Source: Bythopirellula sp. (GTDB taxonomy: Bacteria; Planctomycetota; Planctomycetia; Pirellulales; Lacipirellulaceae). From it: 64,000 nucleotides of DNA. Location of the stretch: positions 3,040,001 to 3,104,000 of the forward strand of contig OZ244170.1 in assembly GCA_965216565.1 (NCBI GenBank), read 5' to 3'. The translations under genes and the position numbers were made by a program. Shown in pieces: positions 5,287 to 54,495 of this stretch. Position 1 is the stretch's first letter. Every line of letters begins with the position of its first letter. Below the pieces are notes generated by a model, which was given only the letters and a program-made list of their open reading frames with translations, was not told the DNA's origin and did no database searches.

Positions 5287-6384
5287 ATGTCCCGCGAACC
5301 CATACTCTCCACCGACGACGTGCAGGCGAAGGCAGCTACCGAGCAAGCCGCGTCGCTGAGCTTGGAAGAGGATCAAGCGCTGCGTCCGCAACGCATGGAG
5401 GAGATGGTTGGCCAACGGGAAGTTTACGAACGGTTGAAGATCGCTGTCGACGCCGCCCAAATTCGCGAAGAACCTCTGGGACATGTTCTGCTCGATGGGC
5501 CACCGGGTCTTGGCAAAACAACATTCGCCACTTGCATTCCACGAGCCCTCAACGTGCCGTTGCAGATTGCCAGCGGGGCTGCGTTGGCCGCTCCCAAAGA
5601 CTTGCTGCCCTACCTCAGCAATGCCGAGGGCGGTTCGGTTCTATTTATCGACGAGATTCATCGTCTGCCCAAGGCCGTCGAAGAATTTATGTACCCGGCA
5701 ATGGAAGATTTTCGCATCGACATTACGCTTGGCGAAGGAGTCAGCGCGCGAACGATCAATATGAAGCTGCAGCCGTTCACCATGATCGGCGCCACCACCC
5801 GCAGCGGTTTACTCTCCGCCCCTTTACGCGATCGCTTTCAAGTCCGGGAGCATTTGGAATTCTATTCGCACGACGAACTTACTGAGATCGTCCGCCGCAA
5901 TGCCAAGAAACTACGGATAGCCATCGACGACGATGCAGCGCTCAAGATTGCTCATTGCAGTCGCGGCACGCCCCGGGTGGCGAACAATCGGTTGCGGTGG
6001 GTCCGCGACTATGCCACCAGTCGAGCCGATGGCGAGATCACCTTGGCCGTTGCCAACGAAGCACTCGGCATGCTGGGCGTCGACCAACTCGGCCTCGACG
6101 GCCAGGACCGTAAGTACCTGGAGACCATCCTCCGCGTATTCCACGGCGGACCCGTGGGCGTGGAAGCGGTTGCCCATACACTTAATACGGCGACCGACAC
6201 GCTGACCGACGAAGTGGAGCCTTTCCTCTTGCGAGCAGAACTTGTGATCCGCACGCCGCGTGGTCGCAAACTCACGACTGCCGGCTATCACCACCTGGGA
6301 GCCGAACCTCCGGAACGTCCCGGTGGCCCTCATTTCAATGCGGACTCTCAGCCAGAGTCTTCGGACCAGCCGCTGTTTGAGTAG
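5287..6384 (+). CDS. ruvB: Holliday junction helicase RuvB
   Basis: LRP, GPPGLGKTT Walker A, FIDEIHRL Walker B, GATTR.G.L..PLRDRF, RTPRGR. Confidence 0.97.
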   Translation: MSREPILSTDDVQAKAATEQAASLSLEEDQALRPQRMEEMVGQREVYERLKIAVDAAQIREEPLGHVLLDGPPGLGKTTFATCIPRALNVPLQIASGAALAAPKDLLPYLSNAEGGSVLFIDEIHRLPKAVEEFMYPAMEDFRIDITLGEGVSARTINMKLQPFTMIGATTRSGLLSAPLRDRFQVREHLEFYSHDELTEIVRRNAKKLRIAIDDDAALKIAHCSRGTPRVANNRLRWVRDYATSRADGEITLAVANEALGMLGVDQLGLDGQDRKYLETILRVFHGGPVGVEAVAHTLNTATDTLTDEVEPFLLRAELVIRTPRGRKLTTAGYHHLGAEPPERPGGPHFNADSQPESSDQPLFE

Positions 6385-7063
6385 GCGAGTCCCTCTGCCA
6401 AAGCCACACAAACACCGGCGCTAGGGCTAAGGCCGCCCATTGGTAGCCGGTGAGCCCGAACCAGAGCTCTACCTCGGGGCGAATGAATTCCGTCAGAAAT
6501 CGGTAGCACAGATAGGCCAAGATGTAGAGCTTAATTAGCTGGCCGCGAAACTGACCGCGCGAACGCAGCCAGGCAAGCACCAGCGCGGCAGTCAAATGAA
6601 ACGCTGTTTCGTAGAGCTGCGTTGGATGCCGGGGCTGCGAGTCGATTGCCGGAAAAACGATACCCCAGGGCAATTGGGTCGGCGTGCCATAGCAGCAACC
6701 ACCGACGAAGCAGGCCAGTCGGCCGATGCCTACTGCGACCGCTACCGGCACGGCGAACGAGTCGCCCGTCTTCACATGAATCCCCAGCGACCACTTGGCC
6801 ACTTCTACGCCAAAGTATCCGCCCACCAAACCACACAGAATCGTTTTGCCGTCGGAAAACCAAGCCATGCCGCTGAGCATGCCTTCCCAGTCGGCCAGCA
6901 CAAAAGGCAACTTAGCTCCCAGCATCGCTCCACAAAAGGCACCGAGCCCCACGCCCAGTTTCTCGCTCTTAGAGAGTGGCAGCGTCTGCTGCGAGCCACG
7001 GCTCAAATACACCCCCGCCCCAACGGCCAGCATCATGATCAATGTGTAGTAAGGAGTAAGCAT
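6335..7063 (-). CDS. Prolipoprotein diacylglyceryl transferase (Lgt) family paralog
   Basis: GRLACFVGGCCYG, LPWGIVF, HPTQLYE, YRFLTEFIR; GKTILCG in place of canonical GMSFHGG. Confidence 0.85.
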   Translation of the reverse strand: MLTPYYTLIMMLAVGAGVYLSRGSQQTLPLSKSEKLGVGLGAFCGAMLGAKLPFVLADWEGMLSGMAWFSDGKTILCGLVGGYFGVEVAKWSLGIHVKTGDSFAVPVAVAVGIGRLACFVGGCCYGTPTQLPWGIVFPAIDSQPRHPTQLYETAFHLTAALVLAWLRSRGQFRGQLIKLYILAYLCYRFLTEFIRPEVELWFGLTGYQWAALALAPVFVWLWQRDSPTQTAAGPKTLAESPH

Positions 7064-7068
7064 GGCAA

Positions 7069-8610
7069 TTAACTCATCGAAATCGCGGCCTGCTGCTTAG
7101 CCCCATCCACCAACGGAGGCAAAGGCACGTGCCCCTCGCGGTACAACACGTTGTAGGCAGAAAACGGAATCACATGCCCGCTCGGCAACACGTGATGGAC
7201 GCACGACTTCATCAACTGACGAACATCGAAGTTGTAGGCATCCATGAATGAGGTGGTGGTCACCCGGAACACATCCTCGGGGTCCAAGTCTTCGGCCATG
7301 GCCCGACGGAAGAAGTCTTCGCCAATGGCCAGCGACCGCTCGTCCGGAGGGGCGGAAGGCGAGCTTGCTCCAAGTCCCCCTCCCCGGGATGCGCCAGAGG
7401 CGGCTTCTTGGTCATTCGGATTATCCTTAACACCATCGATCTGCACCAGTTGCCCGTCACCACCACAACTGCCATCCGCACAGCAGGAGATCCGCGAAAG
7501 ATACTTGCTTACCAACACACTCGCCCGCTGCCGGTTAAAAGTAATCCGCCCCGCAAGCAGATCGAGATGGTTGGCCAAATCGACAAACCGGGCCAGCGGC
7601 AGAAAATCCTCGCCGCTGCGATACGCGTACGCCAGCGAATGACCATTGGGATGCGCACAAGGCAGCGGTGAGAAATCTGATTCCTGCCAGTAGCTAGGAG
7701 ATTGCTCGACTAGGTGGTGGAACACATCGGGAAACGTCACCCTTCGTTCCAATTCTGCGGGCAACACATATCGGCCCACATAAGTAGCCGGCTGGAAACT
7801 AACGCCCGTCACCCAAGGCCGACGCACGCCGAAATCGACGATCGGCCCAATCTGACCTTCATTCACCCCAGCCTGCAGTGTGCAAACCAGCGTCGTCCGC
7901 AGCCCCGCTTCGCCCAGCTTTTCGATCGCCTTCAGTTTGATCTCCAGCAACGACTCGCCGCGGAGTGCGAGCGAGCTATCTTCGTTCAGCCCATCGAACT
8001 GCAAATAGATTTCCGCGCGGTGCTTGAGCGCCGCCACTCGTTCCAGGAATTCTTGGTCGTGCGCTAGCCGGATCCCATTGGTATTGATCATCACAATGTC
8101 GATGGGCTGCGCGCAAGCGTACTCGAAGATTTCGAAAAAATTGGGATGGATCGTCGGTTCACCGCCGGAGAGTTGCAAAATCTCTGGCTGTCCCTCGACC
8201 TCCACCAGCCGATCGATCGCCCGCCGACATTCGTCCACAGTCAAATGATTCCCGCCCGGGCCGCTGGCCGCAAAGCACATGGGGCAATCGAGATTGCAGG
8301 CCGAGGTGATCTCCAACAACCCCAGACACGTGTGCTGCTCGTGTTCCGTGCAAAGCCCACAATCGAACGGGCAGCCCTGCGTTGGTTCTACACCAAACTT
8401 CTCCGGCACCTTACCTGGCAAACTATAATCGTGCCGATCGAACCACCGCGCATCGCTACAAACAAAATCCTCCCGTGGCCCATGCTCGCGGCAATGTTTA
8501 CGGAAATACACGCGCCCCTCACGCTCCACAATCTTCGCCGGCAACAACTCCAAGCACTCCGGACAGAGACTTTGTGTGGAGCCGAGGTACGTATAGTCGC
8601 GGTATTTCAT
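7069..8610 (-). CDS. Radical SAM protein, tetraether synthase (Tes/GDGT-MAS, MJ0619)-like
   Basis: N-terminal CPEC...C.EHG metal site, GCPFDCGLC.EH..HTC, CNLDCPMC rSAM motif, SGGEPT, YLQFDG, C-terminal FMDAYNFD..SC.H...G..IPF..YN. Confidence 0.85.
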   Translation of the reverse strand: MKYRDYTYLGSTQSLCPECLELLPAKIVEREGRVYFRKHCREHGPREDFVCSDARWFDRHDYSLPGKVPEKFGVEPTQGCPFDCGLCTEHEQHTCLGLLEITSACNLDCPMCFAASGPGGNHLTVDECRRAIDRLVEVEGQPEILQLSGGEPTIHPNFFEIFEYACAQPIDIVMINTNGIRLAHDQEFLERVAALKHRAEIYLQFDGLNEDSSLALRGESLLEIKLKAIEKLGEAGLRTTLVCTLQAGVNEGQIGPIVDFGVRRPWVTGVSFQPATYVGRYVLPAELERRVTFPDVFHHLVEQSPSYWQESDFSPLPCAHPNGHSLAYAYRSGEDFLPLARFVDLANHLDLLAGRITFNRQRASVLVSKYLSRISCCADGSCGGDGQLVQIDGVKDNPNDQEAASGASRGGGLGASSPSAPPDERSLAIGEDFFRRAMAEDLDPEDVFRVTTTSFMDAYNFDVRQLMKSCVHHVLPSGHVIPFSAYNVLYREGHVPLPPLVDGAKQQAAISMS

Positions 8611-8858
8611 TCTTCGTCCTTGGGCTTTCTAAAGAATTTTTGGACTTTATTGGCTACGAACAACGCAACGACTGCACCAAGAGGAAACCCAAGAAACAAG
8701 CCGTATCCGATTGTGATTCCGGCATGATCCGCAGGGCCAGGTTTGGCAACTTCGACCGCAATTCTTGTGACCGAGTGACAGGTCGCTAAAAAAGTAATAT
8801 AAGCAGAGAATCCAGCCAGCAACCAAACTCCGATCGATTTCAGTACTTCACGATTCAT
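8607..8858 (-). CDS. Small 2-TM membrane protein with AYITFLATC motif
   Basis: ATGA overlap with rSAM start; two hydrophobic helices; basic C-terminal tail. Confidence 0.7.
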   Translation of the reverse strand: MNREVLKSIGVWLLAGFSAYITFLATCHSVTRIAVEVAKPGPADHAGITIGYGLFLGFPLGAVVALFVANKVQKFFRKPKDEE

Positions 8859-8892
8859 ACGGAATTCTTTCTCTGCGCTCTACGGTTATATC

Positions 8893-9459
8893 CTAACCCT
8901 TCTCCGCCCGTTTCTTCCTAAAGTGACGAATCAGAGCAAAGATAGAGAGCCCTCCAAAGGCACACATGCCGAGGCCCCAGATTAAATATTCCGTACCGCC
9001 ATGCCTGCTGTCTGTGGAAACCAGCAAAAGACATACACCGCAGAAAGTGGCAAACGCCGCCGCGCAAACCAGGACCGCAATCACCATGGCAGCCGCGAAG
9101 GAACTCGCGAACAGCCCCACCTTTTGCGCTGGCGATACCTTTTGCCCCCGCGCCTCGCTCTCGCGCACATTGCGAATCGTACGCACCAGCACCGGCACTG
9201 CCAGTATGCAGACCCAAAAGCCTAAACCAGGGCTAATCGCCACAATGCCGAATATCACCGACGCCAGGGTTAGCAGCAGCATCGTCGTTCCCAGCGAGAA
9301 TGAAAACTTATCTGGTGCTGACGCCGCCGACTCCGTGGTGACCACCGGCGCACCCAACTCCGTGGTCAAGTCTTGACCGCACAGCCAACACTTAATTTGG
9401 CCCTCTGTTAACTCACCCCAACATTGCGGGCAGACGAGCTTGGTGGATTCCGTAGCCAC
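8893..9459 (-). CDS. Zinc-ribbon membrane protein with AFATFCGVC motif
   Basis: CPQC..CWLCG ribbon, four hydrophobic segments; GTG start at 9459 with AGGA upstream. Confidence 0.72.
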   Translation of the reverse strand: MATESTKLVCPQCWGELTEGQIKCWLCGQDLTTELGAPVVTTESAASAPDKFSFSLGTTMLLLTLASVIFGIVAISPGLGFWVCILAVPVLVRTIRNVRESEARGQKVSPAQKVGLFASSFAAAMVIAVLVCAAAFATFCGVCLLLVSTDSRHGGTEYLIWGLGMCAFGGLSIFALIRHFRKKRAEKG

Positions 9460-9524
9460 TTGTGAATTCCTGTGAATAGTGTTTTTTTCGTACCAAGCTG
9501 CATCGATTCGATTAACCAAAACCC

Positions 9525-10004
9525 TCAGTGCACACCCTTAAGTATTTGAGCACAAACCACCAAGAAAGCGATAAACGCGCAAGCAACAACTAGGCCCAAG
9601 ACGCCAATCGTGATAACGACAGCTTTCAAGCCACCAGAAAAATCCTTGAGTAGCGTTTGACGCGAAACCGGCTTGCCTTGCAAAAAGCCAACAACGGTTC
9701 TTATCACAAGAGGTAAGAAAGCGGCTGTCCCAATCACTCCCAGTAGCGGAGTGATTCGGTAAAGCCCCCCCATGACAAGAACGGATACCAATAGTACGAC
9801 GATGTGTGTTCTGGAAACTTCCTTCTCGGTGTGCTCCAGCCTGGAAGCTGAAGATTCGATAACACGTACCGGGATCTCCGCTGAGGTTTGTTCCCTCGCT
9901 CCCTGCCCCGCTCCGCAAAGCCAGCAGTTCGCTTGGCCAGCGAGAAGCTTCGCCCCGCATTGGGGGCAGAGGGGATGGTTGGACACCACTGTGTTCTCAT
10001 TCAT
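9525..10004 (-). CDS. Zinc-ribbon membrane protein with AFIAFLVVC motif (paralog of neighbour)
   Basis: CPQC..CWLCG ribbon, three TM helices; ATGA overlap with upstream gene. Confidence 0.72.
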   Translation of the reverse strand: MNENTVVSNHPLCPQCGAKLLAGQANCWLCGAGQGAREQTSAEIPVRVIESSASRLEHTEKEVSRTHIVVLLVSVLVMGGLYRITPLLGVIGTAAFLPLVIRTVVGFLQGKPVSRQTLLKDFSGGLKAVVITIGVLGLVVACAFIAFLVVCAQILKGVH

Positions 10005-10708
10005 GACCGAAGCTTCTCATGAAAGTCCGATCGCTGAGCAAACTCTTCCGCCATGAAACGCACGCGGCGGACCGCTTGGCCAATGATGATCCCCGTGAGA
10101 GCCAACGCCGCAAGTGTCATCAGTTGATGGTACCGCGGCACGCTGATATCAAGCGTCGCCTCGCGGCCAAACGTTGCCGGCCATTTGGCAACGCCTAACA
10201 CGCAGAGGTAGCCAACCATGCCACCAATTGTTGCCAGTCGAACTAGCTTCAGATCGAATCGCAACGCCGTCATAGCAACGATCAGAAAATACCCCGCCAC
10301 CAATGCACTACGTGGCCCCGAGGCAATCGAGAGCATCCCGGTAAGAAAAACCAAATCACCTGCCGTCGACGCGTAAGGAAGCCACGCGGGGAAATGCCGC
10401 ATTTGCAAACAGATATGCACCGCCGCGGCCAGCATCACCCACGCCAGCGCCAATAAGGTAACTAGGGTATGAAATCGCTCGTCGACTACTGCTTCTTTGG
10501 AAAGCTGCAACACCCCCCAATTCGGCAACTTCCCCGCGGTGCCAAAATAGTGCCACAGATGGATTAAGTAGAAGATGCCAACCGAGGCGATCCGCAGCAG
10601 GTTCACCCGGGCTTCGCCAGCGTATTGCTGCCAGCGTTGCGTGATGTACCAGGACCGATCGGCCGCGGGGCTGGGGCGAGAAGGATTGGAAGAGATATCG
10701 GTGGCCAT
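10001..10708 (-). CDS. Hypothetical multi-pass membrane protein
   Basis: About six hydrophobic helices; apparent first gene of the minus-strand operon. Confidence 0.72.
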   Translation of the reverse strand: MATDISSNPSRPSPAADRSWYITQRWQQYAGEARVNLLRIASVGIFYLIHLWHYFGTAGKLPNWGVLQLSKEAVVDERFHTLVTLLALAWVMLAAAVHICLQMRHFPAWLPYASTAGDLVFLTGMLSIASGPRSALVAGYFLIVAMTALRFDLKLVRLATIGGMVGYLCVLGVAKWPATFGREATLDISVPRYHQLMTLAALALTGIIIGQAVRRVRFMAEEFAQRSDFHEKLRS

Positions 10709-10866
10709 CGTAGCTCCTCTAAGATTGCAGACCTAGATTTGCGGGACAGTATACCGCAATACGGGCTATTTCCAGCCCCGCAGTAGGCCCCTGGGGCCAT
10801 TGACACTTCCGCCGTCTAAGCGATATCTTGATGGATTGTCCATAAGCTTTATTCACGAGTAGTGCG

Positions 10867-53733: not shown

Positions 53734-54495
53734 ATGGCCGACAGCGATCCTCAAGATGACGACGAATACGAGCTCGAGCCAATCGACCCAGAGATTCTGG
53801 AACGAGAGCGTCAGCGGGCCGATGCCAAGGTCCGCCAGGCGGAGCAGTCGGTCGACATCAACGAGTACTACGAGGACGAGCAGCCCGAGGATCCCATCAC
53901 TTGGGACGACATGCGAGGCTTTCAGTTTTCGATTCGCCATTTACTGATTGCTACCGCCGGGCTGGCGGTCTTTCTTACGCTTTGGGAAATTGGCGAATGC
54001 TTGGCTTTGTTCCTGGGTGCCCTCGCGGCATTGGCTGGCGGTTGGTTCTATGTGTTGAAGCGTGAACGCGAAGCCAAAGACAAGCGTCAAATTGAGCGTG
54101 CAGCCCGAGTAGCCGGCAGTGGCAAGCCAACCGACCCAGATGCAATCGATTACAGCGAATTCGATACTTCAGAAGAACCCACTGCATCTCGCGAGTTTCG
54201 CTTCAGCTTTTCCATGAAGGAATTGTTTGGTGCCATGACGGTTGCCGCCCTGATGCTGGGGCTGATCCAAATATTGGGCGGCGCTCACAATGCAGCACTC
54301 GTGCTGGGATTGATCGCGCTCTTGGGCTTAGTGATTCACGTCGTCGGATTTGATCCGCCCCCGGTGGTCGTCCTAGGTTGGTGGCTGCTGTTGGTGCTGT
54401 ATATCGTAATGAGTCTGTGGGCCGCATTCGGCTCCGGAGCGGTGGCGTGGCTGCCGGGAGAGACGAGCATACTTTTTGCAAGCATGCTGTACTAA
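53734..54495 (+). CDS. Hypothetical membrane protein with two F.FS...L-TM modules
   Basis: Acidic N-terminus; FQFSIRHLL and FSFSMKELF each precede TM hairpins. Confidence 0.72.
   Translation: MADSDPQDDDEYELEPIDPEILERERQRADAKVRQAEQSVDINEYYEDEQPEDPITWDDMRGFQFSIRHLLIATAGLAVFLTLWEIGECLALFLGALAALAGGWFYVLKREREAKDKRQIERAARVAGSGKPTDPDAIDYSEFDTSEEPTASREFRFSFSMKELFGAMTVAALMLGLIQILGGAHNAALVLGLIALLGLVIHVVGFDPPPVVVLGWWLLLVLYIVMSLWAAFGSGAVAWLPGETSILFASMLY

Follow-up and report, generated by a model that had tools for sequence, protein, structure and literature searches.

Why should three adjacent membrane proteins, encoded beside a second prolipoprotein diacylglyceryl transferase (Lgt) and an enzyme of the radical S-adenosylmethionine (SAM) type, each close a transmembrane helix with the same short motif ending in cysteine? 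The question is raised by a 64,000-nucleotide stretch of the planctomycete Bythopirellula sp. (assembly GCA_965216565.1, contig OZ244170.1, positions 3,040,001 to 3,104,000), hereafter the window, in which a tightly packed run of minus-strand genes, the cassette, encodes proteins D, C, B, and A, the radical SAM enzyme, and the Lgt-like protein. An earlier note on this DNA read the motif, A[FY]xxFxx[TV]C, as a noncanonical recognition signal for the Lgt paralogue. Judging from sequence comparison, we think that the motif probably serves as the site recognized by a dedicated, nonessential protein S-lipidation system, although the signal that these comparisons delineate is a looser, clade-specific helix-end motif.

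A helix-end cysteine in three neighboring proteins

The three motifs that the earlier note reported are all present in the translations (coordinates are window positions, and every cassette feature lies on the minus strand). Protein A (8607 to 8858), a two-helix membrane protein of 83 residues, carries AYITFLATC at residues 19 to 27 (8778 to 8804), with Cys27 (codon 8778 to 8780) ending its first, signal-anchor-like, N-terminal helix. Protein B (8893 to 9459), of 188 residues, combines an N-terminal CxxC...CWxC zinc ribbon with four helices and carries AFATFCGVC at residues 135 to 143 (9031 to 9057), the conserved last Cys, Cys143, being encoded at 9031 to 9033. Protein C (9525 to 10004), a paralogue of B with 159 residues, a zinc ribbon, and three helices, carries AFIAFLVVC at residues 143 to 151 (9552 to 9578; Cys codon 9552 to 9554), so that Cys151 sits eight residues before the C-terminus. 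Each motif ends a transmembrane helix predicted to run from inside to outside, and in the two larger proteins it is internal or C-terminal, outside any N-terminal signal peptide, as originally described. An AlphaFold2 model of B (mean pLDDT 78.6, pTM 0.43) places helices at residues 54 to 75, 77 to 103, 110 to 148, and 156 to 187, with Cys143 near the outer end of the third.

The motif did not arise separately in each of the three proteins. Paralogy links B with C (30% identity over 150 residues, E values of 2e-7 to 6e-7), so their motifs are not independent. That the 83-residue protein is unlike its neighbors holds in pairwise comparison, in which shuffled sequences equal its score against the other two in 154/500 and 8/500 cases, but not at the family level, where A matches the C-terminal helix hairpin (the last helix pair) of the B/C family profile with an E value of 5e-6.

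The exact pattern is rare in this genome. It matched 3 of 4,086 called genes, with 0.42 matches expected from composition; the three were B, C, and one nonmembrane site, and A, an 83-residue gene missed by our own gene caller, from which this gene set derives, is a fourth. A matrix trained solely on other loci scored the motif Cys of A, B, and C at 7.9, 8.6, and 9.4 bits, respectively, against a genome background in which 1/429 small membrane genes attains 5 bits. Cys140, the alternative candidate for the motif Cys of B, was rejected, scoring -9.0 bits against 8.6 for Cys143 and being kept in 15/80 aligned relatives against 78/80. A scan for further substrates in the genome yielded none that was convincing, its top hits being transporter-like and Wzc-like proteins, and family-profile matches elsewhere in the genome lack the Cys. 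A set of 43 canonical lipoprotein starts was itself defined by a lipobox regular expression and provides no independent control.

Enrichment and orientation of the cysteine beside the enzymes

Test open reading frames (ORFs) were picked by position alone: membrane proteins of 50 to 330 residues, on the same strand, adjoining or lying between the two enzymes. The 134 ORFs so picked, or 117 after merging at 50% identity, comprise 45 from planctomycete-type loci and 72 from an other-clade set whose records are titled Acidobacteriota, Cyanobacteria, Bacteroidota, Bacillota, Gammaproteobacteria, and others. A helix-end Cys is present in 38/45 and 69/72 of them, compared with 39/114 distant ORFs of the same loci and 153/429 small membrane genes of the genome, counts for which ORF calling was heuristic, controls may include shadow ORFs, and kin are not independent. 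The exact regular expression, found in 4/45 and 0/72 cassette proteins, proved too narrow and was rejected as a definition of the family, and in this respect the recognition signal first proposed had to be amended. The shorter pattern F-x-x-[TV]-C occurs in 18/45 planctomycete-type ORFs versus 8/429 genome controls. The planctomycete-type consensus approximates [AS]-[AS]-x-I-A-F-F-x-T-C, and that of the other clade is L-L-L-x-L-G-L-C-G. In leave-one-out scoring, matrices reached at least 5 bits in 20/45 planctomycete-type and 40/72 other-clade proteins but in only 1 to 2 of the 429 genome genes; the planctomycete matrix did so in 1/114 distant ORFs.

The matrices of the two clades barely score each other's proteins (0/45 and 4/72 at 3 bits), and the Lgt subtypes likewise differ between the clades (GCCYG versus GLxD; Tyr versus His in helix 1). 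Motif and enzyme therefore appear to vary together, in a comparison of two clades and not of many independent pairs. Cys proteins from other phyla that have no match to A, B, or C carry the same feature, and 22 Cys proteins of other loci gave a single, below-cutoff match among NCBIfam models. Among 80 aligned B/C-family sequences from these loci, the Cys143 column is kept in 78, whereas other membrane Cys positions are kept in 7 to 15.

The orientation of the helix is equally biased. In all three proteins, basic residues flank the N-terminal side of the motif helix, and A and B, after one more helix, end in tails that are basic as well. Positive-inside counts thus predict an outside location for each motif Cys, on the extracytoplasmic face and away from the radical SAM enzyme as well as from the zinc ribbon. 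An excess of Lys and Arg before rather than after the helix characterizes 32/38 and 54/69 cassette proteins of the two clades, versus 260/671 background sites. Such a position would suit Lgt, which works at the outer face of the membrane (PMC8689077).

Loss of the cysteine where the enzymes are gone

If the Cys served the enzymes, it should decay without them, and it largely does. The alignment comprised 74 B-family domains, taken from 20 chosen regions and from the 30 best loci without a duplicate and the locus of the window itself; in 4 domains the Cys column is not spanned. The Cys is present in 53/63 homologues from enzyme-positive genomes and in 2/7 from six enzyme-negative genomes (Fisher p = 0.004, with kin not independent). 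Searches of five of these genomes with PF01790, and of five with the alignment of the paralogue, gave only the housekeeping gene or a fragment; these genomes are drafts, 92 to 99% complete.

Individual cases illustrate the decay. The cassette lies between two neighbors that look like fabD and ruvB. A genome of the same genus (G004) is contiguous from fabD to ruvB and lacks D, the radical SAM gene, and Lgt there; its leftover homologue has Phe in place of the Cys and closely matches a Cys-bearing protein of another genome (G018). The homologues in G353 and G374 have Thr at the Cys column, and two copies in G490 lack the Cys. G023 keeps it, but a neighboring B copy there is truncated and runs into a piece of Lgt, an arrangement that looks as it would after a recent deletion; G363 bears a similar deletion that also leaves an Lgt fragment. 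The pattern indicates that the Cys is under selection mainly where the two enzymes exist.

An off-cassette tandem array of B-like genes, several without the Cys, was also seen in an enzyme-positive genome (L251; G414:C59:4500-16500).

The two enzymes of the cassette

The Lgt paralogue and its radical SAM neighbor form a tightly linked pair. Lgt follows the radical SAM gene in 62 of the 63 loci with room for it, and, of 80 loci retrieved with Lgt as the query, 71 showed the radical SAM gene, several of the misses falling at contig ends. Across 201 genomes of the order, the Lgt paralogue is patchy and dispensable, being present in 66, of which 64 also encode the radical SAM enzyme. Six genomes of a single genus have the radical SAM gene without an Lgt match at 1e-40; among three of these that we inspected, the radical SAM gene is followed in two by a small Cys ORF and an Lgt paralogue of greater divergence, and the locus of the third stops at a contig end. 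The enzymes are fused in three cases (P0124, G404, and G449). The earlier note had named the Lgt paralogue as the partner of the Cys proteins; it is indeed linked to them, but the radical SAM enzyme is an equally constant partner. With B-family matches taken at E <= 1e-10, the same 201 genomes comprise 51 with both the B family and the Lgt paralogue, 7 with B only, 15 with Lgt only, and 128 with neither. We inspected 13 of the 15 Lgt-only genomes and found a small helix-end-Cys gene near Lgt in nine and none in four. Cultured genera that carry the cassette include Nostoc, Paenibacillus, and Mucilaginibacter.

Several further arrangements of these loci were noted in passing. Records titled as archaeal metagenome-assembled genomes (L130, L154, and L198: Halobacteriales, Pacearchaeota, and Methanobacteriota) bear the Lgt-radical SAM-Cys trio. 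Arrays of five to eight Cys-motif genes occur at L249 (G029), L250 (G410), L280 (G379), and L042, and several genomes have a divided cassette, whose substrates or Lgt lie elsewhere. At L137, L139, L167, L183, L184, L191, and L200, the cassette includes or adjoins genes for proteins of 180 to 196 residues that look soluble beyond an N-terminal helix-end Cys and are possible exported substrates. At L291 (G404:C1:1937000-1947000), two tandem Tes-like radical SAM genes are followed by further radical SAM-like genes without an Lgt match, so that this fold occurs there in another setting.

The Lgt paralogue (6335 to 7063; 242 residues) is the second Lgt of the genome. It passes the cutoff of PF01790 (115.2 bits; cutoff, 24.9) and falls below those of the housekeeping equivalogs TIGR00544 (57.8; cutoff, 118.9) and NF000778 (98; cutoff, 334). 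The housekeeping Lgt is a separate gene of 422 residues (G000:C1:3690735-3692003), and LspA is also present. That housekeeping protein has a long, possibly PDZ-like insertion and Tyr at the His103 position, and four relatives resemble it. The essentiality supplement for Planctopirus lists one Lgt. A model of a relative in the subfamily, P0210 rather than the window's own protein, reached a pLDDT of 94.3, and its sole significant match in the PDB was 5AZB (E value of 3e-6, TM score of 0.63). Residues R115, G126, Y184, R188, and R195 correspond to R143, G154, Y235, R239, and R246 of Escherichia coli Lgt, each kept in 60 to 61 of 62 sequences, and E192, the equivalent of E243, is kept as well. 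A GKT signature, GKT-I-[LVM], replaces the His103 loop, and Lys73 occurs in 61/62 and 68/73 paralogues of the two clades but in 0/5 housekeeping copies.

The radical SAM enzyme (7069 to 8610; 513 residues; PF04055 and PF23545) resembles the tetraether synthase Tes/GDGT-MAS and belongs to an unnamed bacterial branch. Its frame is open, with no in-frame stop. It matches 7TOL with an E value of 2e-70, and it stays below the cutoffs of both the Tes model NF045702 (281.1 bits; cutoff, 450) and its best-scoring NCBIfam model, TrsS NF045646 (324.8 bits; cutoff, 490); four relatives from other phyla score 270 to 290 bits on NF045702. The ligands of the rubredoxin site (C16, C19, C40, and H43), of the N-terminal cluster (C80, C84, C87, and H90), and of the SAM cluster (C105, C109, and C112) are each kept in 76 to 79 of 79 planctomycete-type sequences. 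In the C-terminal region, T453 stands for Met439 of Tes, H473 for Tyr459, and S469 and S484 for Cys, and the only near-invariant Cys residues of the C-terminal cluster are C318 and C470. The pattern of C-terminal Cys residues varies among planctomycete-type enzymes (KCC...FC versus KSC...FS); in the other clade it is TC/SC...FD/FE.

A candidate lipidation pathway and its alternatives

We propose a pathway of three steps. In the first, the Lgt paralogue would transfer a diacylglyceryl-type group from phospholipid to the helix-end Cys on the periplasmic face, with A-F-F-x-[TV]-C as its signal in place of the lipobox used by the housekeeping enzyme; this step is likely in view of the protein family, the geometry of the site, and the selection on the Cys. 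In the second, the radical SAM enzyme, which is cytoplasmic and so on the opposite side from the Cys, would act first on the lipid tails by Tes-type radical chemistry, most simply tail-to-tail coupling, to supply the donor that this Lgt prefers. Such a donor is suggested by the Tes relationship, linkage, and topology, and would explain the near-obligate linkage and the fusions; the first two steps together, with a tail-coupled lipid, we offer only tentatively. In the third, the product would escape cleavage by LspA and stay embedded in the membrane as an integral protein that bears an additional lipid, which we judge likely should the first step occur, from the bulky residue at position -1 and the internal position of the Cys.

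A number of observations weigh against this pathway. No directly adjacent Cys ORF was found in 7/54 and 6/58 evaluable cassettes of the two clades, and the motif by itself is unspecific: the best site of the whole genome, at 17.5 bits, falls in the second helix of a protein that we take to be Wzc-like (G000:C1:4779699-4782122), in the opposite predicted orientation. The Cys is missing from 10/63 homologues in enzyme-positive genomes, especially in arrays off the cassette, and persists in 2/7 enzyme-negative ones, G020 among the genomes that keep a Cys. The paralogue has Leu76 at the His103 position (L, M, or V in 59/62 planctomycete-type paralogues) and a Cys at the N146 position, and PMC13251419 reports that H103A and N146A inactivate E. 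coli Lgt. Loss of His103 was nevertheless rejected as proof of inactivity, because the genome's housekeeping Lgt lacks this His too, with Tyr at the His103 position (housekeeping copies have Y or F in 5/5) and Cys at the N146 position, and the same source describes many Lgts with Y, W, or F at H103 and a partly functional N146C enzyme; an aliphatic residue there lies outside the replacements that this source names. The C-terminal cluster of the radical SAM enzyme departs from that of Tes, so tail coupling is not assured, but activity is not excluded, since the Tes variants M439A and Y459F/L remain active. The outward topology of the Cys is a prediction, and we infer its lipidation from sequence and comparison. 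On balance, the recognition signal first suggested for the paralogue draws support from conservation, facing, and enzyme dependence of the Cys, once its pattern is loosened; each of these three properties had been named by the earlier note as a possible ground for refutation, and none of the checks went against its reading.

Among the alternatives, we give a small chance to the Cys proteins being precursors that are lipidated, cleaved before the Cys, and released as short lipopeptides or lipo-hairpins (a signal, a toxin, or an antibiotic-like product) tailored by the radical SAM enzyme. The tails after the Cys are at most 15 residues long in 14/38 and 30/69 proteins, the genes form variable tandem arrays, the slot beside the radical SAM gene is exchanged between close relatives, and LspA is present. 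Yet some tails measure only one to three residues, the canonical [LVI][ASTVI][GAS]C occurs at just 1/38 and 4/69 sites, and residue -1 is G, A, or S in 8/38 and 21/69. No constant protease or exporter gene was seen in the loci read, for which no systematic search was made, and a peptide on the outer face would be hard for the radical SAM enzyme to reach.

We also hold it improbable that a free membrane lipid is the product, with the Lgt paralogue acting as a lipid-to-lipid transferase or as a presenter for the radical SAM enzyme and the Cys proteins as carriers or accessory subunits. The linkage of the two enzymes (62/63) is tighter than the adjacency of the Cys proteins (47/54), and the paralogue lacks the catalytic His. 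An Lgt-type thioether, however, is not readily reversible, the Cys decays once the enzymes are gone, and the many unrelated proteins per locus that carry it suit substrates better than a carrier. Bacterial Tes homologues have been proposed for synthesis of brGDGTs, the branched glycerol dialkyl glycerol tetraethers (PMC8941075 and PMC10087280), but PMC13159169 places such homologues in just 3 of 14 Acidobacteria that produce iso-diabolic acid.

It is quite unlikely that the Cys is otherwise used, whether by contacting the Cys-rich Lgt paralogue through a disulfide or a metal or in a sactipeptide-like thioether made by the radical SAM enzyme, with the Lgt-like protein serving as a membrane receptor. 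Although the paralogue has C118, C123, and C124, and Tes forms a C-S intermediate (PMC13459092), housekeeping Lgts have the same three Cys residues, the other-clade Lgt has no CC pair and still has Cys partners, the lipid-binding arginines are kept, and prediction puts the Cys across the membrane from the SAM/Fe-S enzyme. Chance combined with paralogy, in planctomycetes whose membrane helices commonly contain Cys (36% of the genome's small membrane genes have some helix-end Cys, and B and C are duplicates), is very improbable, being contradicted by the enrichment, conservation, orientation bias, and loss pattern and by recurrence of the feature in other phyla in proteins without a match to A, B, or C.

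The remainder of the cassette and its surroundings

The Cys proteins themselves are poorly anchored in known families and appear to change quickly. None of A, B, C, and D matched a Pfam or NCBIfam family above cutoff; DUF7577 matched 9/40 B-family members, and an atlas search for B returned planctomycete clusters without a name. Homologues carry the labels Planctomycetaceae and Bythopirellula. A has a GC content of 46% and a third-codon-position GC content (GC3) of 0.43, against a genome median GC3 of 0.59, and its stop overlaps the start of the radical SAM gene; B starts with GTG, with AGGA upstream. On a relative's contig, 312 different letters replace positions 8610 to 8890, and the number and sequence of Cys proteins differ between congeners, which together suggest a fast-changing set of envelope proteins.

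Protein D (10001 to 10708), a multihelix membrane protein of 235 residues without the motif, has a 6TM_PilS/MASE2-like lead only, PF25323 being found on 37% of its nearest cluster. The Lgt paralogue is present in 47 of 50 D-bearing genomes, and D is absent from all 80 other-clade loci (0/80). D was rejected as a substrate, its motif scores being below zero, and may be an accessory subunit in the planctomycete-type clade.

Promoter and terminator scans gave chance-level results. A sigma-70-like site on the plus strand at 10800 to 10829, with 10/12 matches, points to the fabD-like gene, in a count not above chance. Elsewhere in the window, a minus-strand gene (1985 to 2704) encodes a membrane protein that contains an extended low-complexity run of Asp and Ala and has no family over cutoff, and a plus-strand gene (53734 to 54495) encodes a 253-residue membrane protein with two F-x-F-S-l helix starts, as in B, without the motif Cys.

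Significance and comparison with known systems

Our literature search, which covered openly readable papers, found none describing the cassette and, among the matches listed, none joining a tetraether synthase or radical SAM enzyme with prolipoprotein diacylglyceryl transferase; the system is apparently undescribed in print. A cleaved lipobox at the N-terminus is what defines bacterial lipoproteins and lets them be predicted, and a dedicated Lgt acting on an internal or C-terminal helix-end Cys would add a lipid-modified class that predictors miss. Were the lipid tail-coupled, it would be a categorically new class of protein lipid anchor, although that bacteria of many phyla attach a macrocyclic or membrane-spanning lipid, made by a Tes-like radical SAM enzyme, to an internal helix-end Cys of uncleaved membrane proteins through a dedicated Lgt with clade-dependent motif preference remains, to our minds, doubtful. 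On that reading, many of the Tes homologues of bacteria that currently pass for brGDGT synthesis candidates would have their actual role here, and the proposal gives these homologues a testable job. Because homologues of the sampled branch are tied to Lgt and Cys proteins, counting them as markers of tetraethers, lipids used as palaeoclimate proxies, may mislead. With three or four small genes, cultured genera, named substrates, and a named residue, the cassette is directly testable.

Two reported cases of lipidation at a nonconsensus lipobox, cyanobacterial Ycf48 and the CIM-1 carbapenemase, reportedly concern signal peptides at the N-terminus that the housekeeping pathway processes, unlike the proteins of the cassette. 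The closest known system is lipoprotein maturation by Lgt, LspA, and Lnt (E. coli; 5AZB/5AZC; PF01790), which shares with the cassette an Lgt-family enzyme bearing equivalents of R143, G154, Y235, R239, E243, and R246 and an invariant Cys that closes, on the outer side, a hydrophobic inside-to-outside helix with basic residues before it. The cassette differs in having a dedicated second enzyme, always tied to a radical SAM partner, and in its sites. The canonical N-terminal lipobox is [LV][ASTVI][GAS]C, whereas the sites of B and C are internal or C-terminal, and the cassette motif has Phe at -4/-3 and a bulky side chain at -1; LATC, CGVC, and LVVC do not fit [LVI][ASTVI][GAS]C (consensus from PMC8689077), and the position expected of a signal peptide, with the Cys ending about 16 to 26 residues, is that of A (Cys27) but not of B or C. 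With Tes/GDGT-MAS (MJ0619; 7TOL/7TOM; NF045702), the radical SAM enzyme shares the rubredoxin CxxC...CxxH, the Cys/His ligands of the N-terminal cluster, and CxxxCxxC, but Thr and His replace, in the cassette enzyme, Met439 and Tyr459, which are fully conserved across 1,000 homologues from archaea; this enzyme also has an altered C-terminal Cys pattern, is bacterial, and is partnered with Lgt. The TrsS radical SAM (seleno)protein family (NF045646) is its best NCBIfam match, yet one under the family cutoff of 490.

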